A stretch of 63,932 nucleotides of DNA, counting the filler, from Nemertoderma westbladi (taxonomy: Eukaryota > Animalia > Xenacoelomorpha): NCBI GenBank assembly GCA_032718475.1. It is 3 parts of 3 records of this genome, joined end to end, with 100 filler letters (N's around TTAATTAATTAA, not from the genome) between each part and the next. Parts side by side here need not be neighbours in the genome. Positions count along the whole stretch, not along the records: positions 18,664 to 49,078 come from JAUCBJ010005257.1; 2 more parts are not named here. One strand, given 5' to 3'. How positions within the stretch are numbered: position 1 is the first letter of the stretch; every line of letters starts with the position of its first letter. Shown here piece by piece: positions 2,546 through 60,330 of this stretch. The notes beneath the pieces were generated by a model that was not told where the DNA came from, made no database searches, and saw only the letters and a list, made by a program, of their open reading frames with translations. Made by a program: the position numbers and the translations under genes.

Positions 2546-3645
2546 CATAATCTATCTTAGTGAATTTGAATAGGTTCGGAGATTTAAATTTGACGACAGT
2601 AGTGAAAAATTAATTTCTTGACCAATTAATGTGTGTCGTGTAAACCTCATGCCATCAGAAGATTTCATTATGTACAGAAATTGGCGCATTTAAAGCAAAA
2701 CATAATTTATGTCTTGCAACAACTGAAATGTAAAGCGAAACTAAGTTTAATGCTACGGTTATGGGAAATGACTGCCAATGGTCATTCTTAAAACTTATCT
2801 CATCATGGAATTCATGGGCATTTGCTTCCAACGCATCAACCAAAAGAATGAAAGCAAAAATATAAATTCTGACTCAACCAGTAAGGAGGATGGAGATGGT
2901 AATATAACCGTTTCAATTTCATGCAATCCCATAAGATTTGTAGATAAATTTGGGGGGTCACTAAATTAGGACACTATATTTCGGGGCATGGTGTATAGTT
3001 AATAGACCTCTAAGTATTCTTAAAACTATTTTTATTTTAATATTTGTGTATACTTTGAGTGCATATATATAAAGTAGTGTGGTAGTTGTAGTTGTAATGT
3101 AATAAATAATTTTACTTTAATAAATTGTTTAATGTGTTGGTATTACATATTTATTTACTAGGCCCAAGTTCGACTTCATTTTTTGGATATATTTTACATT
3201 TCCATAATCGGTTCAAAAACACCCTGTAATAAATATAATTCATCACAATTCATGTTTTAAATAATGGTAAAGTTGATGGCGTTGCACAAATGCCCATGAT
3301 AACAAATTCATCAGTAACAACACACTGTAATTCCCTATACTAATATCTATTTACAAACATACTCATCAGTTACCCAACCATATACTCTATACATGATAAT
3401 ATCCCAGGAATCCACAGGAATGATGTGTAATGATAAGCAGCTAGGAATGGGAGCCCCAATTCGTTATCAAGATGACCAGGGGCACTCACTAGTAGTGCTA
3501 CCGGTAACTAACAACACAGTATCAGTATGATATTTACACCAGTCGTGTCACATACAGAATGACAATCAGAACTCGACCTTTCCTTTCTATGAGATTAAGA
3601 TTACTCGCTTCTTCATATAAATATTACTGAATTTAATTAGCATTA

Positions 3646-4019: not shown

Positions 4020-4633
4020 TTACAACACAACAAACAGCCTTTACGAAACACTGCCTAAGTGTAAACTAAGATATTAGGCCATCACAACCACGGATCGAAA
4101 CTTACGACATATCATAACGGCACCACCGTATTAAGCAGTCCAAACTGTAAACTAGACTTAATATTAAGCCCATATGAAACTCTCCACCAACCCTCCACAA
4201 ACTAGTCCATTTACAAAAGTACAAACAAACTTACTTTTTGCTAAATAGCTGAATTTCTCATGTAGCATCATTACGCAGATACAAGAACGCAAAATAACAC
4301 GAACATGTGGAACGTGGCGTGGCGTGGAACATGGCGTGGACAACACCAAATATATGTGTATGATGTGACATGATGTGACACACTTCTGACCAATTTTGAC
4401 AACAGTTGTTGCAGGAGTAGTGGTCGTGTTGACTAAGTATATTTTTTTTAATGAATAAATTTTATCTTTAATTAAAAATGTGCTGAAAATCTATTCACTG
4501 TGACTTTCCTTACCAAATAAGAGATATATTGTACAGAAACGTATAATAATTTTTATCGTTTTTGTAGCGTATTTATCTGTTATAGTGATTAACATCGTAT
4601 TATTTTCATTTCTAAACTATTAATTTTATGCAG

Positions 4634-4958
4634 TATAACCCTAAAGGTGTGGATAATGAGTACTACCAGCCCTCCAGTGAGTGGTTTGTAGAAACCGCAT
4701 ATGCCGATGAAGACGAATCACAATCTAAGGCTCGGATCATTTTAACTCTAAAAATAACTCGTAAATCCACCTTCTTCACATTTAACCTGATCCTCCCCTG
4801 CGGTCTGCTCACCGCTGTTATTGTCTTTTGCCAATATCTGCCTTGCACGTCGGGCCCACCAAAGGTACAAATAATCGTTTCATTATTTATGGCCATGGCG
4901 GTTTTTCTGTTGTTACTCAATGAAATTATGCCTAGTTCTGACGATCTACCGATTATTG
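4634..4958 (+). CDS. Cys-loop (nAChR-type) receptor subunit, alternative exon A: end of ligand-binding domain, M1, M2, M2-M3 loop
   Basis: Acceptor ttttatgcag|, donor G|GTAAGT; translation SSEW...LKITRKSTFFTFNLILPC...LPCTSGPPKVQIIVSLFMAMAVFLLLLNEIMPSSDDLPIIG; starts in phase 0, ends in phase 1, 325 nt. The acceptor position is less certain than the donor. Confidence 0.85.
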
Positions 4959-5515
4959 GTAAGTATTCCCCCGCTGCCCTCGTCCGCACCAAGCATGTCT
5001 GCTGGTTGGCAGCCCATTCAGCCCAAAATGTACATGCATTACTGTCTGTGTCTGCTACTCAGTTATTCACCAAACGTTTCCGTCAAATTAAAGTAAAAAT
5101 ATTAAGAATTCCCTGAATCATATAAAACTTTCAATAAATTTTCCAATTATGGATAAAAGTACCGGTAGTATTACTAATATTCCAATATTGTTGAAGACCA
5201 TATTATTATTATCAAAGACAAACAATATACTGACATGTATAACTAAAGATATAAGAAAAGAATCTAAAAAAACATTAAGTAAGAAAACATGACCATTTTG
5301 CCATATTCCAATTATTGATTGAATAAGTATAAAATATACAAGTACTTTCGATGCCCAAGGTTTTTTTATTTCAAGTTGTTTTTGCTTTATACGTAATATT
5401 TTTGGGTGTTTCAGACAATAACATGGACAGAATGCGTATACAAATTGGATTTTTACTTTTCATTTAATTTATTGCTTGTTTCACGTTTGTTTTTGTTTAA
5501 TTTTGCATCATTTAG

Positions 5516-5846
5516 GTTGATATGGAAAACTTTATAACTAGTTCCGAATGGATATTACATAACGCCTTCACCACACCCATGGTGACCTTTTACAATGACA
5601 CGGATTTAGCCCCGTACTATGCCGTTTATTTGACACTAAAATTAGAACGAAAGTCCAAATTCTTCACCTACAACCTCATTGTTCCATGCACAATGCTAAC
5701 CATCCTCATTTTATTGTGCCAATTCCTACCATGCACCAGCGGCCCAGCCAAAGTTCAGATTATCGTGGCACTATTCATGGCGATGGCAGTTTTCCTGGTT
5801 CTAGTTGGGAACATGATGCCTAGCAGTGATAGTGTTCCTATCTTGG
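5516..5846 (+). CDS. Cys-loop (nAChR-type) receptor subunit, alternative exon B (paralogue of exon A)
   Basis: T-rich acceptor catcatttag|, donor G|GTACGT; VDMENFITSSEW...PYYAVYLTLKLERKSKFFTYNLIVPC...SGPAKVQIIVALFMAMAVFLVLVGNMMPSSDSVPILG; phase 0 to phase 1, 331 nt. Confidence 0.9.
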
Positions 5847-8794
5847 GTACGTTCTAGAATGTTTTAAAAGCATCCCCTCTATGGTGTTTAAAGCATCCCC
5901 TCTATGGTGTTTAAAGCATCCATCCACCCAGTTATTTGTGCGTGTAACCGTATTTTTGTATATATCCTATTTCGGCTGTGATATTGTCTGCATTTCTCTG
6001 CCGATCTTTCTGCTCTTCTGCACAACAGGAACGGACACATTGCATGACGTCCAGACGGTGTAACGCACCAAACAATGGCAAAGCCGGTGTAAATATGGCG
6101 GTGTAAATATGGCACTTCGGAAAATTGTTATAAAGGTTGGATTCCCTTTCCCGATAGCATGGACCATTGTTATATACCAAGTGATCGCCTGAAACTACTG
6201 AAAGATTTTTGTTTTCATTTGAAATTGCATCCTACCACATTTAATTGGGGTTACCCTGATGCTGATATTTCGTGAGATCACTTATGAATTTTATTAATTG
6301 ATGATGTTACTAGAGATTTCCGATCATTTTAGTTTTAATGCGATCCTTATAAATTTCATGCATCCATTTTAGATGTAGTAAAATAAAAATTAGAAAATGA
6401 TTTTTAAAGAGGAAATTTTCAAAAGAAACTTTGATAATTTCACATATTTAATTGTTGATTCATGAGGTGTTCTCTATTTAATTGTTCATTCATGATTTCA
6501 TGCGATCAAACAGCTCATGCTTCATGCTATAGTCGCGGTTGGAATACACCTTTACCCATAGACCAACACAATATTGAACGATTTCTATTGGTGATAATTG
6601 AATATAACATTTTCTAATAGATATACCTGTATTTATTCTTCAGCTATAAATTATTTAAAAAAACTACTTCGTAGCTTAATAATGACATAAAGACATTGGG
6701 TGGCATAGGTCGTGTGAAATGGGTGAGATATAAAAATATTGCACTCCTAATAAATTATTACAAACTTCATTCAGTAGTCGTTTGCAAACTTGGAAAATTT
6801 GAAATTTAATATTCATTAATAATAATAAGATTGATTTATATTAATTATTACTTTTTAAAACAAATTCTAAAATTATATAATTATGCTACCAATTTAATTT
6901 GAGAATTCAAATTATATTTATTATTTGACTGCAAAGAAAATTTAAACTCACCCATATTTTTTAATTAATATTTTGTAATAACCCGTTGAGTGTAAGCAAA
7001 ATTTTCGAACCAAATCAATACACATTACCCTTACCAAAGATGCAGGTGAAAGTAACATATACGGGTTTTTCTAACCAAAACAATAAACTAAATAATCAAT
7101 TAAATATTAGGAAAAAACTGCAGGCATAATGATCTTAAAACTACTGCATACTATATATTTTGTATTTTAAAAACATATAAGTTATAACGTTAATAAACAT
7201 AAAATCAATCATGTTTGATAAAGAAAATAGTCGGCAACAAATATAATGAAGTTTTCCCAAGAAATATTCAAACGCCAAAAAAAATTTATTCCTAAAATCT
7301 TTTTTCCTTTCAACACTTTTCCAAAAAAAAAGCAACTAAACCCAAATATACAGACAAAATTTGCCAAATTGACGGTAAGCATTTTATTATAATGTGACTG
7401 CCAAAGAAAACGTAAATTCACTGAACAATTCACTCAAAACTTTGTCTGAAAAAAAATATTTTAGTAATACCAGGGGGAATATATCTGGTTAATTAATGCT
7501 AAATTTTGTTGACGATTCGTGATTTGAATAATGAATTTTGTGGCGCTCCACGAGAAAAGGGACCTTAACCGGTTTTTTCGAAATTTGAGTTAGGGGTTGA
7601 TTCAGATAGATAATATTTTTGACAGCATTTTGAAAAAAAATCTTTCGAATTGGTCAACTATTCGCAAAGTTATTCTAACTTATGTAAATGGTATCTGGTT
7701 AATAGCAAATTTTCAGAAACTGAGAAAAAGCACTTTAAAGTTCTACATCTTTTTTATCTTTTTATCAGTCTGTATGAATGTCTGTATGTCTGTCAAAAAA
7801 TAGGAAATGCTGACCAATTAACTGAAATTTACGCCCTTGGGGATTTCTCTAGTCGCTGATTTCATTTCCGATGTCAGTGTTCACATTTTATATAATGTAG
7901 ACTGTCTACATCACTAATTTATTTAAAAATGATGATAGCCCTACATTGTTAATGGTATAATCTTATATTTATAGCTGAATGAATGAATACCTGTAATAGG
8001 TTTGGTTAGTTTGAGGGAAGAGGGAAGATCGAGCTATTTTGGGGTGTTACACCGGGTATATTTTGTTATGGCAGCTGGTGTGTAGCCCAGAAATTTATGA
8101 CATAGACTCGCACCATCATGATCTCTTATTATAGTAGGCCATGGCACCATCTATGCTTTTAGTTTTCAATGTTGGATGTTCACGTAAATATTAATATTAT
8201 TTTTCTCAAATAGAATATATAACATAATATTATATAAATCGATAACTTATAATTAGTTCGAAAAAATATATCTATTTTTATATCCATTTCAATTTCTAAA
8301 ATATAAATATTCATATAATTTATATTTGCATGGTGAGGCATGATCTGCGTGAAATGAATTATAAAGTGCATCTCTCGAAATCGCACCTTCTCTGAAGTTT
8401 CAAAGAATAATGGGACATTCTAAAACCTCGGTAAACATATTCTAGTCAAAACCCACTTCTGAAATAAAAGCACAATTTCATATGTCTTTATAAATTCTGT
8501 CGGAATGAAACTAAACATCATCACGAATTTTTAACACTGTCCTGTTCACAGACTAGTACTCAGTCAGTCTAGTCGTAAGGCAATAATTTCATTGATCTAC
8601 GTGATAAGTTGAAGTCTAACGTACAATAACTAAGAAATAGCTGGATTTAGTAATATTCTCCCCTCTTGCTGTAAAACTGCCCGATCTTGTAGTAATGAAC
8701 CGATTGTGCAGACCTTTACTGTAATTTACCCTTTAATTGTCACGTCACAACAATCCTGTAAGCAACTGATTAATATTCACTTTTACGCAGGAGG

Positions 8795-15713: not shown

Positions 15714-17061
15714 GTCTCACCTACCAAGTAGACTGGACAGCAGTAGTTACTGTCTGTATAGCTAGTCATATATATTTGATACAGACAGCCCAGCACTATT
15801 GTTTATACTTGCTCTGACAATATATATTTGATATTATTCCAGACGGCCCAGCACTATTGTTTGTACTTGGTCTGACTATATTATATTTGTTATTCCAGCT
15901 CTATCATATATATATTCGTGACCTCCATACCATTATTAGTTTCATATCAGCGATATTATTGCTAAGGTATTTAACTGAATATTATTAGTGAAATGCTCTG
16001 ATTTTATGACGACGAAAATGGTAGTAAGTTACGGGAAATCGTATCACGCACTCCAATCACGTGGATAATGAATAATTGCACGCAAATTTTCTGACACCCA
16101 CCCCGCAGAAACTTTATTTCCCGCAGAAACTTTATTTAATTATGATATATATGCATTAATGAATACCCCGCATCTCTGAATACAGTCTCTGTAATTATAT
16201 AGATTCTACATCAAGGGAATACATCAGTATTAATGTAAGAATTGTTTAAAAGTAAGTAATTTTCAAACGCTACTCCGTTTTAATCATATCGCTAAAATAA
16301 TCATAATCAGCTCTTATTTGCGTCCATTTTTCCCCAGAGATGAATTAATATCTATGTTTAACCATGCTAGTGATGTTTTATCATTTCTTCTATAACTGTA
16401 TTGAATATTATTATTAAATGAGTCCATAGAGCTCAATATATTAATCAATTGCTTGTCATGATTATAATAGGGTTTTATCTCGAATTATACAAGCGGCATT
16501 ATAAAATCTGCAAGTCTATTAGGAACTCTACAGCTTGAAGAGAGCCAGCCTACGCACGCATGAGACAGGACTGTTACGCCGCTATAAACCATGGCGTGGA
16601 TAGGAATTAATACGCATTAGTTGAGCATACCCCAGAGCAATCTGTAGGAACCAGATGGGCCTAATAATCGGGTATATATGATAAGTGGGCAAAAATATAT
16701 AAGAAATTGTCTTTGACAAGAATAAATAACTCGTATTAGAATCTTTTCTGCTGTAAATAATGTGCTGTGTATGTAACTCGTTCTCACAAGGTTGGGTTGT
16801 AGTTAAATCATATTTTAATATTAAAATAGTTCACTATTGTTGGAGTATATATATTTTCAGTTTATTAGTTCCAGTTATAAATCATATTATATTTTCACTT
16901 TTCGAGATTTTTTTCCTTACACACCAAATTTGTAAACATTATTCTTTCAGAATAATTTTTCTTTAGCACCATTGTATGGTTTTTCTCTTGTCTTAATTTT
17001 ATTCTAACGCACTATAATTATTTATTTTATTATTTTTGATATTTGTTAAAATATTTAAATA

Positions 17062-18015
17062 ATGTCATTCAATGAAAGTAACCTTCATCCACGGTTGTTT
17101 TGGAAGCTTATATATGTTATCAGTTTGGCATACTCACTGACACTGTTGTATATCTTATGGCAAGACATAGAGACAGTAAGGGCTTTGTTGTCACGTGTGG
17201 AGTTTACCGCAGACATAACTGAGAAAAACCATCAACATGGTTTCTTCACTGTAAATGATGGCGCTGATGACTGCAACAACGTAACTTGGCAACGAATTTT
17301 CGCGAATATCGATATTTTCGCGGTAAGTCACGCTGGTGGATGGTTGATCGTCGCACTATTCTTAAGAAATATTTACGTTTCCTTGACTTTGAGTGTAACT
17401 TGGGAAGTAACGGAAATAATATTTTCGCATCTGGTTCCAATATTCCCGGAATGTTGGTGGGATAAAGTTATATTTGATTGCCTTCTATGTAACGGGTGTG
17501 CTATTTATTTAGCCACATTTATTTCTCGCAAGCTTCACTTAACATCGTACGACTGGTCGAGAGTTGAAACTGCAAAACGCAAAGTGACGATATTTAACAT
17601 TCTCGGATTTTCATCACAATTGAAAGGACGTAGTTTAGAAATTATTTCGTTATTCCAGATATACGTGCTTTTGGAAACTTCCCAATTATGTATATGTATT
17701 TTACAAGTTGTTTTAGATTTTCCCGTAAACCACGGATTCCTTTTAGCTAGGTATATTCTCGTCATGTTAACGGGCGCCCCTGCAGCAGAAGGATTTTATC
17801 GCTATTACTCTGATAACAATTGCAAAAACATTGGCAAACAGGCGTCAGTTTTAATAACATTGCTTGCGCTAGAAATCGCAATATGCCTAAGACACGGACA
17901 CCATCTGTTTACGTTTTTTGATATAGGTTATGTAATTGTTTGGTTATCTATGCTGATGTGTGCCGCTTGTCTAACAGTCTACGCCACAAGCAGTAACATG
18001 CACGTAACATTTTAG
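17062..18015 (+). CDS. Phosphatidylserine synthase (PTDSS1-like base-exchange enzyme), divergent, single ORF, 317 aa
   Basis: Motifs HP..FW, DIFAVSHAGGW, TWEVTE and FPECWWDKVIFDCLLCNG align with PTDSS1 (DIFAFGHFWGW, TWELTE, NFAECWWDQVILDILLCNG); several hydrophobic segments; no introns within the ORF. Confidence 0.85.
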   Translation: MSFNESNLHPRLFWKLIYVISLAYSLTLLYILWQDIETVRALLSRVEFTADITEKNHQHGFFTVNDGADDCNNVTWQRIFANIDIFAVSHAGGWLIVALFLRNIYVSLTLSVTWEVTEIIFSHLVPIFPECWWDKVIFDCLLCNGCAIYLATFISRKLHLTSYDWSRVETAKRKVTIFNILGFSSQLKGRSLEIISLFQIYVLLETSQLCICILQVVLDFPVNHGFLLARYILVMLTGAPAAEGFYRYYSDNNCKNIGKQASVLITLLALEIAICLRHGHHLFTFFDIGYVIVWLSMLMCAACLTVYATSSNMHVTF

Positions 18016-24065: not shown

Positions 24066-26043
24066 ACACCGGACACTGGTACGGTTTAACTTACCTCGCG
24101 TGACATACCGGACACTGGTACGGTTTAACTTACCTCGCGTGACACACCGGGCACTGGTGTACGGTTTAACTTACCTCGCGTGACACAACGAGCACTGGTG
24201 TACGGTTTAACTTACCTCGCATGACACACCCGACACTGGTACGGTTTAACTTAGCTCGCGTGACATACCGGACACTGGTACGGTTTAACTTACCTCGCGT
24301 GACATACCGGACACTGGTACGGTTTAACTTACCTCGCGTGACACAACGAGCACTGGTGTACGGTTTAACTTACCTCGCATGACACACCCGACACTGGTAC
24401 GGTTTAACTTACCTCGCGTGACACAACGAGCACTGGTGTACGGTTTAACTTACCTCGCATGACACACCCGACACTGGTACGGTTTAACTTACCTCACGTG
24501 ACACACCGGGCACTGGTGTACGGTTTAACTTACCTCGCGTGACACAACGAGCACTGGTGTACGGTTTAACTTACCTCGCGTGACACACCCGACACTGGTA
24601 CGGTTTAACTTACCTCGCGTGACACATCGGGCACTGGTGTACGGTTTAGCCTACCTCGCGTGACACACCGGGAACTGGTGTACGGTTTAACTTAACTCGC
24701 GTGACACACCGGGAAGTGGTGTACGGTTCAACTTAACTCGCGTGACACAACGAGCAGTGGTGTACGGTTCAACTTAACTCGCGTGACACACAGGGCAGTG
24801 GTGTACGGTTCAACTTAACTCGCGTGACACAACGAGCACTGGTGTACGGTTTAACTTAAAACTCGCGTGACATACCGGACACTGGTACGGTTTAACTTAC
24901 CTCGCGTGACACACCGGGCACTGGTGTACGGTTTAACTTAACTCGCGTGACACACCGGGCAGTGGTGTACGGTTTAACTTACCTCGCGTGACACACCCGA
25001 CACTGGTACGGTTTAACTTACCTCGCGTGACACAACGGGCACTGGTGTGCGGTTTAACTTAACTCGCGTGACATACCTAACACTGGTACGGTTTAACTTA
25101 CCTCGCGTGACACACCGGGCACTGGTGTACGGTTCAACTTAACTCGCGTGACACAACGGGCACTGGTGTACGGTTTAACTTAACTCGCGTGCCACACCCG
25201 AACCTGGTGTACGATTTAACCTACCTCGCGTGACACACCGGACACTAGTACGGTTTAACTTACCTCGCGTGACACACCGGACACTGGTACAGTTTAACTT
25301 AACTCTCGTGACACAACGGGCACTGGTGTACGGTTCAACTTAACTCGAGTGACACACACGACACTGGTACCATTTAACTTACCTCGCGTGACACGCCCGA
25401 CACTGGTACGGTTTAACTTACCTCGCGTGACACACCGGGCACTGTTGTACGGTTTAACTTAACTCGCGTGACTCACCCGACACTGGTGTACGATTTAACC
25501 TACCTCGCGTGACACACCGGACACTAGTACGATTTAACCTACCTCGCGTGACAACACTAGTACGGTTTAACTTACCCCGCGTGACACACCGGGCACTGGT
25601 GTACAGTTTAACTTAACTCTCGTGACACAACGGGCACTGGTGTACGGTTCAACTTAACTCGCGTGACACACCCGACACTGTTACCATTTAACTTACCTCG
25701 CGTGACACACCCGACACTGGTACGGTTTAACTTACCTCGCGTGACACACCGGGCACTGGTGTAAGGTTTAGCCTACCTCGCGTGACAAACTGGGCAACGG
25801 TGTACGATTTAACCTACCTCGCGTGACACACCCGACACTAGTATGGTTTAACTTACCTCGCGTGACACAACGAGCACTGGTGTACGGTTTAACTTTACTC
25901 GCGTGACACACCGGACACTGGTACGGTTTAACTTACCTCGCGTGATACACCGGACACTGGTACGGTTTAACTTACCTCGCGTGACACACCGGACACTGGT
26001 ACGGTTTAACTTACCTGGCCTGACACACAGGACACTGGTACGG
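24066..26043 (-). repeat. 39/41-bp tandem array, about 48-50 units, copying the CTCF exon 1 end plus splice donor
   Basis: Minus-strand unit gtaagttaaaccgtaccagtgtccggtgtgtcacgcgag; continuous with the real junction ...CCGTACCAGTGTCCTGTGTGTCAGGCCAG|GTAAGTT at 26015/26014. Confidence 0.95.
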
Positions 26044-36234: not shown

Positions 36235-37443
36235 ATGGAAGTGAAACTTTGTAAAGGTCACGGAAAGCCTTGCCTCCTAAAGACCGGAGTCAAGGATGGG
36301 CCTAACAAAGGCCTCAGTTTCTATATGTGCAGTCAGAAAGAAAGTTGTTCGTTTGTTACTGAAGCGCGTGGTTACGAGAAATCAATTTCCTGCCCAGTTC
36401 ACCCACAAAATATCGTGGAGATGCAAGCCTTCGTCAGGAGCGAGACTTCGCAAGACTTCCAACATTATTTCCGTTGTATATTATCAAAACAAATTGGTAA
36501 GAAATGGTGTGGCTCTTCGCCGCTTTCAGAACCGCTAAAAATTCAACTAAATAAACCGGTGAAACCGAATCCCGGAGGAGATATAACCAATACTTACAGA
36601 GGCTCATCGACCTCCTGGGATAAATCGGTGCCGCAACACGGTGCTGCACCGAACCGCAACGAGTTTAGGCCTATAAGACCGGAACAACCTCATGTGAAGG
36701 AATCGGGAGGTCCGGATTCTGCTGCTGGTAAGTCTGAAGACGATGTTATATTTTTACCAGCGGAACCAGTTCGAATCGGACTAAATGTCAACGCGAAGGA
36801 GTTTAAACCTCGGGATAGACAACCTTTAAATAAACCCAAACCGAAGTCGGTTCCGTTAAATTCTACCTCGGTTGGAACGCAGGGTGGTGCTTGGCTCGAC
36901 GAGTGGGGCGCTGCTGATGGGTTCAAGAAAGACGACAAGGATGATAGCGTGCGGATTCTGGAGCCGCATTCGGGTTACTACCCGATGTTTAAGGAGCAGT
37001 TGAGTTCGCAACTACACCGGGTGTTTACCTGGGGTGTCAGCCAGTTCTCCGCGGGAGGGGAACACGCGAGTAAGCTGAATCTACCCGCGAGTAAACTCTA
37101 CGGGGGTACGATGTCGCAAGCGCGGTCTCGGGAAGTGACCACGGTTACCATGGAGAGTATAGCCCGTCTACACGGGTCATTAGAGAATCGGCCAACCAAA
37201 GAGAGTGAGTTACCGGACCCGGGGGGGTTGAAGGTCACGTTGATGTCTCATCAGCGACAGGCTTTGGCGTGGTTGACATGGCGGGAGAACCAGCACCCGT
37301 TGGGCGGGATTCTGGCCGACGATATGGGACTCGGGAAGACTTTGACGATGATAGCGCTGCATCTCAAGTGGTCAGAGTTGGTCGTCCAGGCAAATAAAGA
37401 GGCCAAGACGGAGTCTAACGATGAAGCTGATAGCGACTTTAAG
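36235..37443 (+). CDS. TTF2: TTF2/lodestar SNF2-family ATPase, exon 1
   Basis: N-terminal GRF-type zinc finger CKGHGKPCLLKTGVKDGPNKGLSFYMC; HQRQALAWL and GGILADDMGLGKT (motif I); phase-0 donor AAG|GTTACC is weak but frame-compatible. Confidence 0.9.
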
Positions 37444-37751
37444 GTTACCTACCCTAAAGGAGTTACTATTACATTATATAATAAACATACCGCCAGTTAG
37501 ATAGTTAGGTTCATCACATAATTAATATAATAATAACTTCGATAAATATTGAGAACAAATAGGTTTTGATATTTCAAATAAAAAAATGTACTAATTATTA
37601 ATAATTAATTAATATTGCAAAAAACTAATTTAATTTAACCATCCTATTATCCTATCATTACTGCATTAAACTAATTATTGTTACTTCCTTTATTCAAATT
37701 AGAACTATCACTAATATCATTGGTAATAATAATAATTAATTGTTTAATCAG

Positions 37752-39155
37752 GTCAACTCAGATTCCTCCAAAACCTCCTCTTCTATGGGCGACTGGTTGT
37801 CTAAGAAGTCCCCCGCTGTACCCCTAACCTCCACCGCGACCCTCATTGTCTGTCCCGCCTCCGTTCTCCACCAATGGCATCGCGAGATAGAACGTCGTGT
37901 GGACGTCGGCCTCCTACGAACCTACATCTACCACGGCTCGGCTCGCGAAACCAACGCGAAACGACTCGCCTCCAACGACATGGTGCTAACGACCTACGGA
38001 ACGGTGGCCGCCGAGATGAAACCGGTGACGGAACGCTCCATAGCGGAACAGCGTTACTACGAACCGGCTGGGGACATTCCGGAAGGTTCCGGGGAGCTTC
38101 CGGTCCTCGGAAAGGTCCGCTGGGATCGGATAGTGTTGGACGAAGCTCACACCATAAAGAATCCCAAGAGTCAGGCGGCTATAGCGGTGACGTCATTGCG
38201 TAGTCGAGCGCGTTGGGCGGTGACCGGCACCCCGATACACAACAAACTCTTAGACATGTACTCCTTGCTGCGGTTCCTTCGCTGCTCCCCGTTCGACGAG
38301 TACAAGTTGTGGAAACGGCAGGTGGATAACTCGTCGGAGCTCGGCCGCAATCGGTTGGAGACTGTGGTTAAAGCCGTGCTCCTCCGACGGACTAAAAGCG
38401 AACTGGGTGTGGATAACAAGCCGTTGGTAACTCTACCGGAGAAGGTTGTTATCGAGCACAAGGTTGAGTTGTCGGCCGATGAGCGGGCCGTTTACGATGT
38501 CATGTTCACTCACTCGACGAGCGTTATGTCAAATTATCTTCAAGATAAAAATGATCCTGGGTCGTTGTCGAGTGGGTCTGCTGGTCGGGTCGCCTCTGGG
38601 TCGGCTGGTCGGGTCGCCTCTGGGTCTGCTGGTGGGGTCGCCTCTGGGTCTGCTCTCTCGGTGACTCACACTGGCGGCGCCGACACCGCCTGGGTCGATA
38701 AATTCTACGCCACGATGAACCAACACGGGGGCATCGCTTTTATCCTCGTCCTTCTGTTGCGTCTCCGACAGATCGCCACCCATATGGGTCTCCTCAAGGA
38801 AGTTATAGACGCCAACGACGTGGAAGAAGACGCCGACAAACAGGCGGGTATAGACCTCGCGGATAAACTCTTGGAGATGAGTATCTGCGAAGATTCTTCT
38901 AAGAAAACTTGGCAATCCAATAAGATGAGTTCCAAGTTAACGTTGTTGATGGAAAAGGTAACTGAGATCCGTTGTAGATCAGTTGAAGCCGGTAGGAAGA
39001 TCGTCATTGTCTCCCAGTGGAAGAAACTCCTCCATATAATAGCCGTCGAGTTGACTTCGCGACGCTTAAAGTATTTCATTATTGAGGGTTGTGTTACTGC
39101 GAAGGCGAGGGCTGATGCTATAGACGACTTTAATGATAATCCCAATGGAATTCAG
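37752..39155 (+). CDS. TTF2: TTF2 exon 2
   Basis: Acceptor tttaatcag|; TLIVCPAS, RIVLDEAH, RWAVTGTPIHN, LLRLRQ, KIVIVSQW; donor CAG|GTTAGA in phase 0. Confidence 0.93.
38572..38655 (+). repeat. In-frame 24-bp coding repeat (GSAGRVAS, about 3.5 copies)
   Basis: tgggtctgctggtcgggtcgcctc tandem copies inside TTF2 exon 2. Confidence 0.85.
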
Positions 39156-39239
39156 GTTAGAATATATTTCTTCTGTAATGCGAAGGTATTGTTTGTTGCT
39201 TTTTGTTTGTTTTAGAACATGTTTGTATCTCTTTGTGGG

Positions 39240-40030
39240 GCCACGCAGTAAAGGCGGGCCTTGGCGCACAATTATAATTAGTAAATAAGGCAAAATTTCA
39301 TGTCCGTCTGTCTGTCTGTCTGACGGTCTGTCTGTAATGAAAAATTCATTCGTAAATAACTTTTGAAGATTTTAACCATTTTCAACATTGAAGTTACGGG
39401 CAAATACCTCTCGAACTTTTGACTCCAGATCAAATCGAACTTGCTCAATTTCGCGTGCTGCGCGACGCCCCACGAACGTGGTAATTTATGGTTTAATTTT
39501 TGTCCTAAACACCTTACTTTGTGCTCTTTATTAGTTGCTGAGTTTATATCGTGACCATAGAGCCAGAACAACAAATACCACAATTTTTCAAAATTACTCA
39601 AGATGGCGTTCTACATCTTATGTTAGAATCCTAGACTTGTATGTCAGTCCGTTTAGGAGATATGGAAAACCAGAACAACCCTCACAACATAAAAGTTGAA
39701 AACCGTTAGAGGTAAAACAACACACACAGACTAGAGTTAATGTTAAATTTCAGTTTGTGTTGTTTTGCCTCTTTGGAAAATAACGAAAAAAACAGTTTTT
39801 TTCATTAACAAAATTCATTCTGAATGCTAGCCACTATTATAAAATGTGTCATTGTATCTTCCCAGACCTCTGTCGAAAATATTAGGAGACGGGATACATA
39901 TAGAGGGAAATGAGAAGGTTTTTTCATTTTTCTCGAAACCACAATTTTTGGTGAGTGTTGTTCTGGCTCTTTGGTTACGATATAATCTGTTCTCTTTAGT
40001 TCCCATTTTTGACGGTCATTCAATAATTAT
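39240..40030. mobile_element. Probable Helitron/Helentron-type non-autonomous element in TTF2 intron 2
   Basis: (gtct)n microsatellite followed by a taacttt motif, an arrangement resembling DINE-1-like elements; boundaries uncertain. Confidence 0.4.
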
Positions 40031-40172
40031 TGGCTCTACTTAGTCTGCCTGTAGTGCTAATGTTGTTTCGGTAACTTACCTGAACTGAAGGCCTCTACTA
40101 GAGGCAGAAAGCTTGTAACTGTCACTTTATCTTTTGTTTGTGGGGGTCTGCCTTTCTGTATGTATCTTTCTA

Positions 40173-43100
40173 TGTTTGTATCTGTTTGTTTTAGGTAATG
40201 CTTGTATCTGTTTGTTTTAGGTAATGTTTGTATCTGTTTGTTTTAGGTAATGCTTGTATCTGTTTGTTTTAGGTAATGCTTGTATCTGTTTGTTTTAGGT
40301 AATGCTTGTATCTGTTTGTTTTAGGTAATGTTTGTATCTGTTTGTTTTAGGTAATGCTTGTATCTGTTTGTTTTAGGTAATGCTTGTATCTGTTTGTTTT
40401 AGGTAATGCTTGTATCTGTTTGTTTTAGGTAATGCTTGTATCTGTTTGTTTTAGGTAATGCTTGTATCTGTTTGTTTTAGGTAATGTTTGTATCTGTTTG
40501 TTTTAGGTAATGCTTGTATCTGTTTGTTTTAGGTAATGTTTGTATCTGTTTGTTTTAGGTAATGCTTGTATCTGTTTGTTTTAGGTAATGCTTGTATCTG
40601 TTTGTTTTAGGTAATGCTTGTATCTGTTTGTTTTAGGTAATGCTTGTATCTGTTTGTTTTAGGTAATGCTTGTATCTGTTTGTTTTAGGTAATGTTTGTA
40701 TCTGTTTGTTTTAGGTAATGTTTGTATCTGTTTGTTTTAGGTAATGCTTGTATCTGTTTGTTTTAGGTAATGCTTGTATCTGTTTTAGGTAATGCTTGTA
40801 TCTGTTTGTTTTAGGTAATGCTTGTATCTGTTTGTTTTAGGTAATGCTTGTATCTGTTTTAGGTAATGCTTGTATCTGTTTGTTTTAGGTAATGCTTGTA
40901 TCTGTTTGTTTTAGGTAATGTTTGTATCTGTTTGTTTTAGGTAATGCTTGTTTCTGTTTGTTTTAGGTAATGTTTGTATCTGTTTGTTTTAGGTAATGCT
41001 TGTATCTGTTTGTTTTAGGTAATGTTTGTATCTGTTTGTTTTAGGTAATGTTTGTATCTGTTTGTTTTAGGTAATGCTTGTATCTGTTTTAGGTAATGCT
41101 CGTATCTGTTTGTTTGAGGTAATGCTTGTATCTGTTTGTTTTAGGTAATGCTTGTATCTGTTTTAGGTAATGCTTGTATCTGTTTTAGGTAATGCTTGTA
41201 TCTGTTTGTTTTAGGTAATGCTTGTATCTGTTTGTTTTAGGTAATGCTTGTATCTGTTTTAGGTAATGCTTGTATCTGTTTGTTTTAGGTAATGCTTGTA
41301 TCTGTTTGTTTTAGGTAATGCTTGTATCTGTTTGTTTTAGGTAATGCTTGTATCTGTTTGTTTTAGGTAATGCTTGTATCTGTTTTAGGTAATGCTTGTA
41401 TCTGTTTGTTTTAGGTAATGCTTGTATCTGTTTGTTTTAGGTAATGCTTGTATCTGTTTGTTTTAGGTAATGTTTGTATCTGTTTGTTTTAGGTAATGTT
41501 TGTATCTGTTTGTTTTAGGTAATGTTTGTATCTGTTTGTTTTAGGTAATGTTTGTATCTGTTTGTTTTAGGTAATGCTTGTTTCTGTTTGTTTTAGGTAA
41601 TGTTTGTATCTGTTTGTTTTAGGTAATGCTTGTATCTGTTTGTTTTAGGTAATGCTTGTATCTGTTTGTTTTAGGTAATGCTTGTATCTGTTTGTTTTAG
41701 GTAATGTTTGTATCTGTTTGTTTTAGGTAATGCTTGTATCTGTTTGTTTTAGGTAATGCTTGTATCTGTTTGTTTTAGGTAATGCTTGTATCTGTTTTAG
41801 GTAATGCTTGTATCTGTTTGTTTTGGGTAATGCTTGTATCTGTTTGTTTTAGGTAATGCTTGTATCTGTTTTAGGTAATGCTTGTATCTGTTTGTTTTAG
41901 GTAATGCTTGTATCTGTTTGTTTTAGGTAATGTTTGTATCTGTTTGTTTTAGGTAATGCTTGTTTCTGTTTGTTTTAGGTAATGTTTGTATCTGTTTGTT
42001 TTAGGTAATGCTTGTATCTGTTTGTTTTAGGTAATGTTTGTATCTGTTTGTTTTAGGTAATGTTTGTATCTGTTTGTTTTAGGTAATGCTTGTATCTGTT
42101 TTAGGTAATGCTTGTATCTGTTTGTTTGAGGTAATGCTTGTATCTGTTTGTTTTAGGTAATGCTTGTATCTGTTTTAGGTAATGCTTGTATCTGTTTGTT
42201 TTAGGTAATGCTTGTATCTGTTTGTTTTAGGTAATGCTTGTATCTGTTTGTTTTAGGTAATGCTTGTATCTGTTTGTTTTAGGTAATGCTTGTATCTGTT
42301 TTAGGTAATGCTTGTATCTGTTTGTTTTAGGTAATGCTTGTATCTGTTTGTTTTAGGTAATGCTTGTATCTGTTTGTTTTAGGTAATGTTTGTATCTGTT
42401 TGTTTTAGGTAATGTTTGTATCTGTTTGTTTTAGGTAATGTTTGTATCTGTTTGTTTTAGGTAATGTTTGTATCTGTTTGTTTTAGGTAATGCTTGTTTC
42501 TGTTTGTTTTAGGTAATGTTTGTATCTGTTTGTTTTAGGTAATGCTTGTATCTGTTTGTTTTAGGTAATGCTTGTATCTGTTTTAGGTAATGCTTGTATC
42601 TGTTTGTTTTAGGTAATGCTTGTATCTGTTTGTTTTAGGTAATGCTTGTATCTGTTTTAGGTAATGCTTGTATCTGTTTGTTTTAGGTAATGCTTGTATC
42701 TGTTTGTTTTAGGTAATGTTTGTATCTGTTTGTTTTAGGTAATGCTTGTTTCTGTTTGTTTTAGGTAATGTTTGTATCTGTTTGTTTTAGGTAATGCTTG
42801 TATCTGTTTGTTTTAGGTAATGCTTGTATCTGTTTTAGGTAATGCTTGTATCTGTTTGTTTTAGGTAATGCTTGTATCTGTTTGTTTTAGGTAATGCTTG
42901 TATCTGTTTGTTTTAGGTAATGTTTGTATCTGTTTGTTTTAGGTAATGTTTGTATCTGTTTGTTTTAGGTAATGTTTGTATCTGTTTGTTTTAGGTAATG
43001 TTTGTATCTGTTTGTTTTAGGTAATGCTTGTATCTGTTTGTTTTAGGTAATGCTTGTATCTGTTTGTTTTAGGTAATGCTTGTATCTGTTTGTTTTAGGT

Positions 43101-44223
43101 AATGCTTGTATCTGTTTGTTTTAGGTAATGCTTGTATCTGTTTGTTTTAGGTAATGTTTGTATCTGTTTGTTTTAGGTAATGCTTGTATCTGTTTGTTTT
43201 AGGTAATGCTTGTATCTGTTTGTTTTAGGTAATGCTTGTATCTGTTTGTTTTAGGTAATGTTTGTATCTGTTTGTTTTAGGTAATGTTTGTATCTGTTTG
43301 TTTTAGGTAATGTTTGTATCTGTTTGTTTTAGGTAATGCTTGTATCTGTTTGTTTTAGGTAATGCTTGTATCTGTTTTAGGTAATGCTTGTATCTGTTTG
43401 TTTTAGGTAATGCTTGTATCTGTTTGTTTTAGGTAATGCTTGTATCTGTTTGTTTTAGGTAATGCTTGTATCTGTTTGTTTTAGGTAATGCTTGTATCTG
43501 TTTGTTTTAGGTAATGTTTGTATCTGTTTGTTTTAGGTAATGTTTGTATCTGTTTGTTTTAGGTAATGTTTGTATCTGTTTGTTTTAGGTAATGCTTGTA
43601 TCTGTTTGTTTTAGGTAATGTTTGTATCTGTTTGTTTTAGGTAATGCTTGTATCTGTTTGTTTTAGGTAATGTTTGTATCTGTTTGTTTTAGGTAATGCT
43701 TGTATCTGTTTGTTTTAGGTAATGCTTGTATCTGTTTGTTTTAGGTAATGCTTGTATCTGTTTTAGGTAATGCTTGTATCTGTTTGTTTTGGGTAATGCT
43801 TGTATCTGTTTGTTTTAGGTAATGCTTGTATCTGTTTGTTTTAGGTAATGCTTGTATCTGTTTGTTTTAGGTAATGTTTGTATCTGTTTGTTTTAGGTAA
43901 TGCTTGTATCTGTTTGTTTTAGGTAATGTTTGTATCTGTTTGTTTTAGGTAATGCTTGTATCTGTTTGTTTTAGGTAATGTTTGTATCTGTTTGTTTTAG
44001 GTAATGTTTGTATCTGTTTGTTTTAGGTAATGCTTGTATCTGTTTGTTTTAGGTAATGTTTGTATCTGTTTGTTTTAGGTAATGCTTGTATCTGTTTGTT
44101 TTAGGTAATGCTTGTATCTGTTTGTTTTAGGTAGTGCTTGTATCTGTTTGTTTTAGGTAATGCTTGTATCTGTTTGTTTTAGGTAATGTTTGTATCTGTT
44201 TGTTTTAGGTAATGCTTGTATCT
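40173..44223 (+). repeat. 26-bp (some 22-bp) tandem array, about 155-160 units, copying the TTF2 intron 2 acceptor plus exon 3 start
   Basis: Unit gtaatgcttgtatctgtttgttttag; the last copy is the real junction tgtttgttttag|GTAATGCTTGTATCTCTAAAG at 44208/44209. Confidence 0.97.
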
Positions 44224-44366
44224 CTAAAGGCTGGTGGCGTTGGAGTTAATCTCATTGGCGGTAGTCATTTATTTCTCACTGATATGCATTGGAACCCCCA
44301 ACTGGAGGAACAGGCCTGTGATAGAATATACCGAGTGGGTCAGACGAGGGAAGTTTTCATTCACAG
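44209..44366 (+). CDS. TTF2: TTF2 exon 3
   Basis: [45 protein letters not shown] (helicase motifs V and VI); phase-0 start; donor AG|GTGGGT in phase 2. Confidence 0.93.
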
Positions 44367-45006
44367 GTGGGTTTATGTTTTATTTAATACCCCGTTCGTC
44401 TGTTAATCCGCGCAGATAATGGGCGCAAAGTTATACGTCATTCCTATAAATAGAAACATGTTGAATGTTATTAATACAACGCCTAATGGAAGTCAGTTGA
44501 AATAACTTTCCTTAAAGGTAAACACAATTAATTACAACGTGTGTCGCCCCCTAATGGAAGTCTGTTGAAATAACTTTCCTTAAAGGTAAACACAATTACG
44601 TCTTATACCCCATTAACTACAAAAAAATAATAGAATTAGGACCCTCTAAAACCCCCGCCATACACTAAATGATACCGGTAATAAACTGCACGAAAGCTAA
44701 GTCTATATTCTATAAGAAAATATATGACAATTTTGTCGCCGGGAAAGGGGGTCTAGGACAAAAATAATTAATTTGTGAAAAAATGTTATCTTCTTCTTTC
44801 AATATCTGGCCAAGCATTTTTCATATTATAAATTATGCGTTCAATCACTCAGTCGAACATGTTGCTTTTAAGATAGATTTCTTAGGCGAATACGCATCTA
44901 TCCGAGGGCTTTGTTACACTTTGTGGCTAGCTCCGTACGAAATGTTTAATACTTAATGGAATTTTACTAACTTTCAGTTTTCAGTAATTAAATGAAATTC
45001 TTATAG

Positions 45007-45151
45007 ATTCGTTGTTACTGACACTGTGGAGGAGAAAATACTGCAACTTCAGCAGAAGAAGATGGATTTAGCTAGTGGAGTTCTATCAGGTTCCAAAGTT
45101 ACCGCACATAAACTGTCGTTACAAGACTTGCGGTTATTGTTTGGTGTCTAA
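45007..45151 (+). CDS. TTF2: TTF2 exon 4 (terminal; absent from the ORF track)
   Basis: Acceptor ttcttatag|; (R)[47 protein letters not shown] matches the TTF2 C-terminus; the four exons total 2916 nt (971 aa). Confidence 0.92.
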
Positions 45152-45449
45152 TTCATTCTAAAACTATTTAATTTCCTCTAGAATATCGTTGTTTCCTTGG
45201 TTACCATATGCAATATTTAAATGATTTTGTGCTAATAATGTTATATTTTCTTAAAAAAAAAACTTTGAATTCATATAAAATCAAAATTTAACGGGACACT
45301 GGCAATAAGACATCAATAACCGGAATCGCAAATGCCGGAATATTCCGGCCGGAACTGAAATTTTCATAACATAAAGCCTGGGTCTCATACGATCCAGGAA
45401 ATAGACATTACGGCTTACATTTTATTGCTTTAATATTTTATTTGCAACA

Positions 45450-48250: not shown

Positions 48251-48534
48251 TGTCTGCACCAGGTGTCTGCACCAGGTGTCTGCACCAGGTGTCTGCACCA
48301 GGTGTCTGCACCAGGTGTCTGCACTAGGTGTCTGCACCAGGTGTCTGCACCAGGTGTCTGCACCAGGTGTCTGCACCAGGTGTCTGCACCCACCAGGTGT
48401 CTGCACCAGGTGTCTGCACCAGGTGTCTGCACCAGGTGTCTGCACCAGGTGTCTGCACCAGGTGTCTGCACCAGGTGTCTGCACCAGTTGTCTGCACCAG
48501 GTGTCTGCACCAGGTGTCTGCACCAGGTGTCTGC
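48251..48534. repeat. 13-bp minisatellite (tgtctgcaccagg)n, about 21 copies
   Basis: Direct tandem repeat followed by tgcttaacgtttacaccc, the same anchor as the repeat at 8-203. Confidence 0.95.
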
Positions 48535-52492: not shown

Positions 52493-52698
52493 TTGGGGGC
52501 TGCCGCCCCCAAACCCCCGCTTCTTAGGTTGGGGGCTGCAGCCCCCAAACCCCCGCTTCTTAGGTTGGGGGCTGCCGCCCCCAAACCCCCGCTTCTTAGG
52601 TTGGGGGCAGCCGCCCCCCAAAATCCGCTTCTTTGGTTGGGGTCTGTCGCCCCCAAACCCCCGCTTCTTTGGTTAGGGGCTGCCCTCCCCAAACCCCG
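52493..52698. repeat. 36-bp GC-rich minisatellite, about 5.5 copies, each with an internal hairpin
   Basis: ttgggggc-tgcc-gcccccaa-acccccgcttcttagg. Confidence 0.9.
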
Positions 52699-57950: not shown

Positions 57951-60330
57951 ATGGGTAAAAAAGGGAAATCTAAAATTAAAGTCACTAACAAATCTATGAA
58001 AGGGGTTAGTCGTCTCAGCAAGACGAAACGACGAGAAAAAAATGCAATTAGATCACAGATAATGAAACGGAAATCTGATGAGAGAAGTGGAGAAAGTCGA
58101 CAGATGGTCGATAAAGAAGTGGAAGTTAGCGACAATTCTGATATAGACGATTATATCGATAATATAGGGATTGGGGAGCCGGTGAATGTTTCAGCTAGGA
58201 AGGGAGACCGGAATGGTAAGAAACGGCGTCGTATAGAAACCCAATACCGGTACCCCTCTAGTTCCGAAGAGGAGTATGACAAATGGGATGAAAAGTTTTA
58301 TACTGTGGAAAGTAAATTCGTTACCGGAGAAACAACTTCCGTTGTTCCGTTACTTCCGGTTAAGTTTGGCAATAAACTTGTTCGTCAATCGATGGTTCTA
58401 CCCAATACGAAATGTACGAATGAAAGCGATGAAGACGCTGAAGGTGACGTCATTGAATCAGATGATGATGTCATCAATTCGGATGGTGACGTGATTAACT
58501 CCGATTGTAGCGAAGAATCGCCCATTGAACCCCGATCCGCCGTTGAACTCTACGCCGAACGAGTGCGGCAACTGGCTGACAGTAAATCCCGGATGGGTTG
58601 GCTCTGCTGCCAGATAACTCAGGACCCGGACAGCAGCGGGAAGAAACTGAAGGAGATGCGAGGCTTCCTGGGTGTCGTCGACCCCGTCCTCAGGGTCTCC
58701 TTAGCCAGACTGGCGGCTCTCTCGCTCTGCGAAGTCTTCAAGGACATTCTCCCGGATTACCGGATTATAAGTCCAAATTCCGGAGGGGAAAAACTCAGCA
58801 AAGATATTCGCGGTCTGCGGGACAGAGAGGCGAGTTTACTTAGGAACTATCAATTGTATCTGGGGAAACTGGATGTGTTTATACGGAGTGGGTTGGGTAA
58901 AGGTGTGGTGAAAGGGGATAGTAGGGGGTGGATGGATGGAGAAGGAGGGTATTAAACATGGTACCGGTAACGAGTCTCTGGCTATCTGTTCTGTGTTCTG
59001 TTTGTGCGAATTACTTAGAGATAAACCGCAGTTTAACTTCCGTAACAACATCGTATTAACCCTCGTCCCGATAACCGCTTCTAAATGCGCCGCGGCCGCT
59101 AATAAATCCCGAGAAACATTCGAGTTGATCTTCGCTGAGGATAAAAGCGGCGAGTTATCCCTGGAGGTTGTCCGAAACCTCGGTAAGTTTCTCAAGGATA
59201 AACACTTCGACGTAAATCCTCGGTGCCTTGACGTCTTCCTTAAACTCGACCTCCGGGATGCGGAGGCGCCGGGTTCGAATCCTGCTAAGCGCCGTAAAGA
59301 GGAGAAAGTCGGGTTGTCTAGGAGACAGAGACGGGAGCTGAAAGAGCGCAGTAAATGGGACGCCGAGTTATTGGAGATTGACGCCGAGGAGTCCGAGGAG
59401 AAGAAGTCGAGATTCCACGCCGAGATCGTCAAGCACTTGTTCTACACCTACTTCCGGGTCCTCCGAGCTCCTTCCCGGATACTCGTACCTTCCGCTCTCG
59501 AGGGTCTCGGTAAGTTCTCCCATCTCATCAACATCGACTTCTTCGACGATCTTCTATCTCTACTGAACAGTTTGGTTGAGTCGAGTGACTCATTTGAGTC
59601 GGGTCTATCAACTTCCGGTTTAAATCGACGGGATAGTTTGAACTGTTTATTAACTGTCTTCCGGATTCTCTCTGGGCAAGGTGAAGCGATTCTAGTAGAT
59701 CCAACTAACTTCTATAGACTTCTCTACAACATCTTGTTCAACTGCGGTGACAATGTGGATGACGTTGAACTCCTCGTGAAGGTGATGGACGCGATGTTTC
59801 TCCGTCGGATGAAACTAAACCCTCCCCCGCGTCTGTGCGCCTTCATTAAGAGACTATCATCGGTGGCGCTACACCAACCCCCACCCACCGCGCTGGTCTT
59901 CCTCTACCTAGGGCGATCGTTGTTGCTACGCAACTCTGCCACTCAGACACTATTGGACACGGACACCGAGTCGGCCGCTGGAGGGCGCTATCTTCCTTTG
60001 CTAGGAGACCCAGACCGTTGTGAGGCGGTCGCCACGGCGCTCTGGGAACTGGCGGCTCTGGAGCGGCATTGGGCCCCGTGCGTGCGCCCCCTAGCGGCGC
60101 ATATCGTACGTGGTTGTCCGACCCAGTCCCATGGCCGAGGGTCCCTACCCATAGCTATGTATTCCAAGTCTCCTTCCGAACTTCTGTTTGTTTACAGGAA
60201 CTACAATCGGGACGGTTTGCTGATGCGGGAATCTCAAAACCGTAAAACTTATCCGCGTGTTTGTAGAACCGATAATCGTGATTGGCTGAAGGAATATATG
60301 ACTCATACACTAGCATCGTTGATTGGGTAA
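57951..60330 (+). CDS. NOC3L: Nucleolar complex protein 3 homolog, present as two overlapping ORFs (57951-58955 and 58936-60330) separated by one frameshift
   Basis: LLPVK, SLCEVFKDILPDYRI, LCELL...FNFRNNI, YFRVL, LEGLGKFSHLINIDFFDDLL, RLCAFIKRL and ALWEL..L.RH are NOC3/CBF motifs; both halves are otherwise uninterrupted. Confidence 0.88.

Follow-up and report, generated by a model that had tools for sequence, protein, structure and literature searches.

Intron 2 of a TTF2-like helicase gene of Nemertoderma westbladi (Xenacoelomorpha) contains a 4-kb minisatellite built from the gene's own 3′ splice site, with the authentic acceptor (44208/44209) standing at the very end of 157 complete units. 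The gene was analyzed in a stretch of 63,932 nucleotides from assembly GCA_032718475.1 (three parts joined end to end with filler letters), which is referred to below as the window. This arrangement is already known under the name of "mirages," and the TTF2 array is a large example of it. The dominant transcript uses the terminal acceptor. We consider the minisatellite to be most likely a passive passenger of the intron, the terminal acceptor probably being chosen through its exon context and any leak to other copies probably being removed by decay.

Structure of the array and of its host gene

Analysis of the whole window with Tandem Repeats Finder (TRF) characterized the array as a tandem repeat with a period of 26, 158.5 copies, 94% matches, and a score of 7,222 (Table 1). 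Splitting the array at each unit start gave 158 starts, from 40195 to 44209, and hence 157 complete units. These figures agree with the initial annotation, which had claimed about 155 to 160 copies of the 3′ splice site and had described the unit as it was found here, namely, the terminal bases of intron 2 followed by the first 15 nt of exon 3. The units are of 26 bp (n = 140) or of 22 bp (n = 17), the latter corresponding to a 4-bp deletion form. Eight unit types were distinguished: 84 units were GTAATGCTTGTATCTGTTTGTTTTAG, 46 carried a C>T substitution at position 7, 17 were of the 22-bp form, and 10 belonged to rarer types. A duplicated block of ~36 to 40 units was detected in the order of the unit types (score of 22, with 100 shuffles giving at most 19), which is the outcome expected of unequal exchange. 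The longest exact repeat of this order spanned 17 units, a length that was also reached by a shuffle.

Inspection of the unit starts revealed AG immediately upstream of 156 of the 158 (TTTAG in 154 and TTGAG in 2) and GG upstream of the remaining two; one unit begins with GTAGTG. AG|GT junctions are therefore present at 156 of the 158 starts, comprising 155 decoys and the authentic acceptor. These counts correct the claim that every junction reads ttttag|gtaatg. Since AG precedes 155 of the 157 decoy starts, the splice signal has been kept in most copies, and a TAAT adenosine is located 23 nt upstream of the AG in each unit. The reading frame separates the authentic acceptor from its copies, as had been proposed: none of the 55 internal starts that are in frame is open (0/55), and the sole open frame starts from 44209. 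Most of the in-frame internal starts translate as VM(L/F)VSVCFR followed by a stop, so that use of an internal acceptor would presumably remove helicase motifs V and VI. Folding of four units, performed without a shuffle control, revealed nothing distinctive.

The modelled host protein consists of 971 residues encoded by four exons and contains a GRF zinc finger and SNF2 and Helicase_C domains (Pfam). The best named homologues of the exon 2 product are TTF2 proteins (40 to 44% identity over exon 2), and the exon 3 product displays a median identity of 81% to 119 homologues. The 15 exon bases present in the array unit encode VMLVS. Because VMLVSL is found at this point in 106 of 120 homologues, the gene was the source of the repeat rather than the reverse. 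Near copies of the six other splice sites modelled in TTF2 and in the neighbouring CTCF-like gene were searched for in the window, and none was found.

Table 1. Coordinates of the TTF2-like gene, of the repeats of its intron 2, and of the donor-type array of the CTCF-like gene
Feature	Position	Strand	Basis
39/41-bp tandem copies of CTCF exon end and donor	24066..26039	-	TRF, unit analysis; authentic donor 26015/26014
TTF2 exon 1, coding part (GRF zinc finger, SNF2 start)	36235..37443	+	Open reading frame, Pfam, spliced X2 contig
TTF2 intron 1, 308 nt, GT..AG	37444..37751	+	Bypassed by X2 contig, joint 37441-37750 "cut +2"
TTF2 exon 2 (SNF2 domain), CAG at end	37752..39155	+	Pfam, homologues, X2 contig
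TTF2 intron 2, 5,053 nt, donor CAG|GTTAGA	39156..44208	+	X2 contig departs after 39157, resumes as 44211-44240
Older separate acceptor copy, AG at 39214-39215 then AAC instead of GTA	39204..39232	+	25/29 identity to terminal acceptor
High-copy interspersed repeat(s), ~0.9 kb, within decayed 5′ array edge	39240..40104	.	Depth; ends approximate
Decayed array edge, ending at first intact AG (40193-40194)	40110..40194	+	Local alignment to array above all 500 shuffles
TTF2 minisatellite, 157 complete units with internal block duplications	40172..44223	+	TRF, unit splitting, depth in DNA-like runs
TTF2 exon 3, 158 nt, Helicase_C, acceptor 44208/44209, donor CAG|GTGGGT	44209..44366	+	Pfam, X2 contig, homologues
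TTF2 exon 4, coding part to stop, after intron 3 (44367-45006)	45007..45151	+	Modelled from frame and homology

The array in DNA-like sequencing runs

Public sequencing runs were mapped onto both flanks of the array, using the four of the eight listed runs that contained most of the query (X1 to X4). The data from these runs are assembled contigs, from which rare forms are lost. X1, X3, and X4 are DNA-like and come from two studies (X1 and X4 from one sample, X3 from the other study). The summed contig depth of the last two units was 1,674 to 1,896 in X1, 3,037 to 3,133 in X3, and 610 to 692 in X4, versus 19, 15 to 21, and 5 to 14, respectively, for single-copy exons. The corresponding ratios of array-unit to single-copy depth were 86 to 98, 142 to 213, and 44 to 144; they vary between runs, and a summed contig depth is not a copy number and would be raised by copies located elsewhere in the genome. 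A few-unit array cannot yield ratios of this size, indicating that the array was not inflated during assembly. The initial annotation had foreseen that its reading would fall if a few units had been inflated by the assembler. Such an artefact would be in keeping with the mapped runs in so far as no single read or contig was seen across the whole array. It is nevertheless highly improbable in view of a unit depth ~44 to 213 times that of single-copy sequence in three DNA-like runs and of the eight unit types following one another in a non-random, block-duplicated order.

Two minor observations were made on these runs. In X1 as well as in X3, the DNA contigs begin at 44201, as if the alleles ended in a 22-bp unit; this is too indirect and was not used. 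Exon 2 of the TTF2-like gene contains 3.4 copies of a 24-bp coding unit (GSAGRVAS-like; 38573 to 38654, + strand), at which run X4 displays differences and a depth dip, perhaps reflecting a copy-number allele.

The acceptor used in the dominant transcript

Run X2, like the other runs listed, is not recorded as RNA. It was taken as cDNA, since one of its contigs omits two GT..AG introns and intron 1 is left without any X2 contig; formally, the spliced contig could also stem from a retrocopy in DNA. In this contig (3,341 nt; depth, 763.8), intron 1 has been cut out at GT..AG, and exon 2 is spliced to the terminal acceptor. The letters that follow exon 2 are those of positions 44211 to 44240; 17 of them extend past the unit and occur in exon 3 alone. 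Because the contig runs into these letters, we conclude that the dominant transcript uses the terminal acceptor, on the strength of one run of contigs, in which minor forms are invisible. Selection of the last acceptor was one of the two options offered by the initial annotation, and it agrees with the single spliced contig seen. No contig joint to an internal array copy or to the older acceptor copy at 39215 was listed among these contigs, in which rare forms are lost. Positions 45032 to 45206 were covered by no run, and the X2 contig was not placed on exons 3 and 4 in the right-flank mapping; these gaps are uninformative and were not used.

The older copy is present in the contigs of X1, X3, and X4, and its identity to the terminal acceptor includes two exon bases past the unit. 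Its AG is located 60 nt from the donor of intron 2, so that its use would close a 60-nt intron, and its pyrimidine tract matches that of the terminal acceptor in quality (0.80 versus 0.75). The purine content after the acceptor does not discriminate between the two sites (0.57 for the older copy versus 0.53 for the terminal acceptor). Translation from the older copy reads NMFVSLCGATQ and stops after 11 codons. To judge from this frame, a rule selecting the first suitable AG would waste the transcript at 39215. That a copy with a good tract at this short distance from the donor has no joining contig, and is itself unable to be spliced again, speaks in favor of a passive array.

We propose that the terminal acceptor is preferred because a full exon and the strongest nearby donor follow it: predicted U1 pairing amounts to −11.4 kcal/mol for the exon 3 donor versus −6.5 and −6.7 kcal/mol for internal array junctions. 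The upstream copies, each with just 15 exon bases, would likely be ignored, and the terminal acceptor, alone backed by the full exon, its enhancers, and this donor, would win. Occasional use of an upstream copy would lead to a stop within ~10 codons and to nonsense-mediated decay. The exon junction complex (EJC), which is described as suppressing regenerated splice sites (PMC8184009), would hide the donor that is recreated where exon 2 meets exon 3. The choice of acceptor has a precedent in a duplicated 3′ splice site with a short upstream exon piece, for which the downstream site was favored by 6:1 to 25:1 (PMC1450099). In that beta-globin minigene, wt14, as in TTF2, an upstream acceptor carries a short exon piece and the downstream full-exon acceptor is preferred. 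The wt14 minigene contains one decoy and was assayed in vitro, whereas TTF2 has 155 decoys in its genomic setting, and these also bear a donor-like GT.

Several points weigh against this account. Exon definition alone leaves the copies located 26, 52, and 78 nt upstream eligible, because the resulting exons would be of ordinary size. When coupled to transcription, one duplicated acceptor took 1 in 7 events (PMC1450099); a heavy leak from 155 decoys, concealed by decay, is therefore conceivable. The donor recreated by joining exon 2 to exon 3 is predicted to pair with U1 slightly better than the real donor of intron 2 (−8.1 versus −7.1 kcal/mol). Run X2 includes two 51-nt contigs of array units with depths of 640.5 and 1,021.4, and array RNA in X2 relative to X1 represents 2 to 4% of the mRNA ratio per base. 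The RNA support comes from one run of contigs, and the enhancers are a presumed feature. Finally, the mature joint is identical for one-step and for multistep removal, so that the X2 contig cannot separate the two routes.

One-step or stepwise removal of intron 2

The main competing explanation is that recursive, or piecemeal, removal of the array bears a material share of the splicing flux. Junction-to-junction splices would then excise whole units and remake the same AG|GT, and the routes would converge unless one or two units remained. The sequence offers what such a process needs, as the array contains acceptors directly abutting a donor sequence from which a 5′ splice site could form anew, at 156 AG|GT junctions, each with the TAAT adenosine at its fixed distance from the AG, and the regenerated donor is the stronger one in the comparison given above. 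The ratio of array RNA in X2 to X1 can moreover be set beside the same measure for interspersed repeats, which was 0.02 to 0.37% in nine bins, that is, 5 to 180 times lower. Array-bearing RNA is thus above background, and no X2 contig falls on the single-copy stretches of intron 2. The amount is ordinary for an unspliced intron, and the RNA in question may be unspliced, partly spliced, or mis-spliced, with decay concealing more. The missing contigs carry no proof either way and were not used as evidence.

Other observations make stepwise removal unlikely. A ratchet through the array was the other option of the initial annotation. As a main route opening at the first intron acceptor, it is not supported: the acceptor-like copy at 39215 reads AG|AAC, so that no donor can be re-formed there, and X1, X3, and X4 all retain this dead end. 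The AG|GT context, for which a recursive-like character had been claimed, is there in the sequence of the array junctions and is not distinctive, since it terminates three of the four modelled introns of TTF2 and CTCF and is thus the ordinary acceptor context here. The donor-type array of the CTCF-like gene requires no ratchet. The mature joint contains the same regenerated donor, yet exon 3 is retained. Known ratchet points of Drosophila and vertebrates resemble the TTF2 array in that an acceptor abuts a donor and a usable donor would reform after the first step (PMC8605326; PMC8184009). They are single, strongly conserved sites located in very long introns (PMC8605326), with intermediates that have been demonstrated, whereas the TTF2 sites are copies of a repeat, read from the sequence, the first of which lacks GT.

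In a more elaborate form of this explanation, which we regard as quite unlikely, the array would act as a self-similar substrate. The spliceosome would enter internal copies cotranscriptionally and work its way along the 4 kb stepwise. Since every step would recreate the same AG|GT joint, a minisatellite with more than 150 ratchet points would be self-correcting, and the length of the allele would set the loss of TTF2 transcript to dead ends of one or two units. If stepwise removal were true, it would represent a new means of tolerating a repeat.

A donor-type array in the neighboring gene and relation to known repeats

A mirror case is found next door, in a CTCF-like gene whose intron carries ~49 copies of the exon end and of the donor (Table 1). 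Its homologue search was crowded by long zinc-finger proteins, and its identity was assigned by BLAST within 120 homologues, among which the best matches, P0237 and P0221, are both named CTCF. The authentic donor is the first copy, as deduced from the reading frame, a stop following at once past the first donor. Among the 47 complete downstream copies, GT is kept in 31 and lost in 16. The TTF2 and CTCF arrays are the two longest tandem arrays of the window. A rough estimate of the chance that one of the eight other arrays lies ≤30 nt from a splice site is 6 to 11%, and the presence of two adjacent splice-site arrays beyond chance is suggestive only. We propose that the real site is the last copy in TTF2 and the first copy in CTCF because array growth is tolerated on the intron side alone.

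The occurrence of such arrays in two adjacent regulatory genes raises the question of a selected rheostat, in which the length of the array would set the share of unproductive TTF2 transcripts directed to decay. The premature stop encountered from every decoy and the high identity of the units would fit this role. We consider it very unlikely, since minisatellite turnover itself generates high identity, the 5′ edge of the TTF2 array is decayed and harbors a transposon, and GT has been lost in the 16 CTCF copies mentioned above.

Both arrays correspond to the "mirages" of lancelets, which are described as tandem copies of exon-intron borders, 5′ and 3′, that are unstable in length and leave regular splicing undisturbed (PMC3087553; PMC3902484). 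In TTF2 and CTCF, the unit spans a real boundary, the extra copies are intronic, and the authentic site occupies the end of the array next to the exon. A regular mRNA is produced from TTF2, as indicated by one spliced contig in one run. In the amphioxus genes reported (Adh3, the globins BflGb6 and BflGb9, troponin C, and PGBD5), boundary copies lie within the intron, as in TTF2 and CTCF, both 3′ and 5′ boundaries are affected, and the signal is kept in many but not all copies; as in TTF2, regular mRNA is made and the edge of the array is decayed. The TTF2 array is larger, with 157 units of 26 bp versus 3 to 7 units of 60 to 160 bp for the amphioxus globins and PGBD5, the cases on which this comparison is based; no record is claimed. 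It also differs by its AG|GT junctions and by its intron-poor host, which has no close TTF2 relative among the homologues matched. The genes of the window are generally intron-poor (four exons for TTF2 and two for CTCF).

Donor-type minisatellites are reported from human genes, including F7 intron 7 (37 bp), interferon-inducible 6-16, CBS intron 13, LMNB2, and PDGF intron 4. They contain 5 to 25 copies, of which the first site is used, with leak to its two closest neighbors in the case of 6-16 and CBS (PMC1557585). In these genes, the first unit covers the exon edge and the pseudo-sites are the same as the real site; the CTCF array is their direct counterpart. Unlike these cases, it is the acceptor that is repeated in TTF2, so that transcription passes through 4 kb of decoys before it reaches the real site. 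A limited literature search found no natural acceptor-type repeat outside lancelets beyond the mirage papers.

The value of the locus is that of a natural test of splice-site choice. The transcript of TTF2, a conserved helicase gene, presents 155 near-identical acceptors before the real one, the earliest by as much as 4 kb, and in CTCF, next door, the real donor is succeeded by 31 intact copies. Simple first-come choice of splice sites predicts heavy mis-splicing of this locus, and the size of the leak would tell how far exon context and the EJC override the order of synthesis. The origin of mirages at exon edges is called unclear in one of the lancelet papers (PMC3087553), and a genome-wide count of such arrays would bear on why repeats arise there.

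Origin of the array

The upstream part of intron 2 suggests how the array may have formed. The interspersed repeat located between the older copy and the array reaches a summed depth of up to 316,000, compared to ~19 for single-copy exons. Both flanks of this ~0.9-kb insert align to the array above all 500 shuffles. They carry TTTGTGGGG at 39232 and 40137, which may be a target-site duplication, an assignment that is not established; terminal inverted repeats were not found at the ends of the insert. These features would be accounted for by an ancestral intron of ~60 nt in which the acceptor and the first exon bases were duplicated. Slippage and unequal exchange would then have enlarged and homogenized the copies, and the 5′ edge of the array would have decayed before being split by transposon insertion. 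In the same region, a 10-nt stretch (40075 to 40084) is complementary at 9 of 10 positions to the exon 2 donor region (39151 to 39160); it resembles a strong minus-strand donor and is probably due to chance or part of the inserted repeat.

Another conceivable origin builds on a route of intron gain mentioned in the initial annotation, the tandem duplication of a segment spanning an AGGT site, here an exonic one; the array would be left over from such an event. CAG|GT is present on both sides of the intron, and the route has been demonstrated in another system (PMC3265369). Its application to TTF2 is most improbable, as it is contradicted by the composition of the unit, whose 5′ half is pyrimidine-tract intron sequence (GTTTGTTTTAG) and not the end of exon 2 (GGAATTCAG). 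In addition, 1 of 119 homologues, the fish isoform P0116, diverges from the family at precisely the point where exon 2 meets exon 3, an indirect and weak hint that the position of intron 2 may be old.

Other features of the window

Additional features were noted outside the TTF2-like gene. A nicotinic receptor-like gene contains two similar adjacent exons (4616 to 5116 and 5516 to 5857, + strand), which end in ...IG|GT or ...LG|GT. The pair represents a tandem exon duplication and could be spliced in a mutually exclusive manner. An open reading frame of 318 codons for phosphatidylserine synthase extends from 17059 to 18015. In a NOC3-like gene, a frame change occurs at 58900 to 58960 (+ strand) in a purine-rich stretch between two long open reading frames, corresponding to a very short atypical intron or to an assembly indel. 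The 12/13-bp arrays at 9 to 203 and at 48251 to 48534 are related and share the same end flank, suggesting that they are carried by a mobile element. In a 36-bp array (52493 to 52697), beside which no exon was found, some copies display a pyrimidine run followed by AG|GT.

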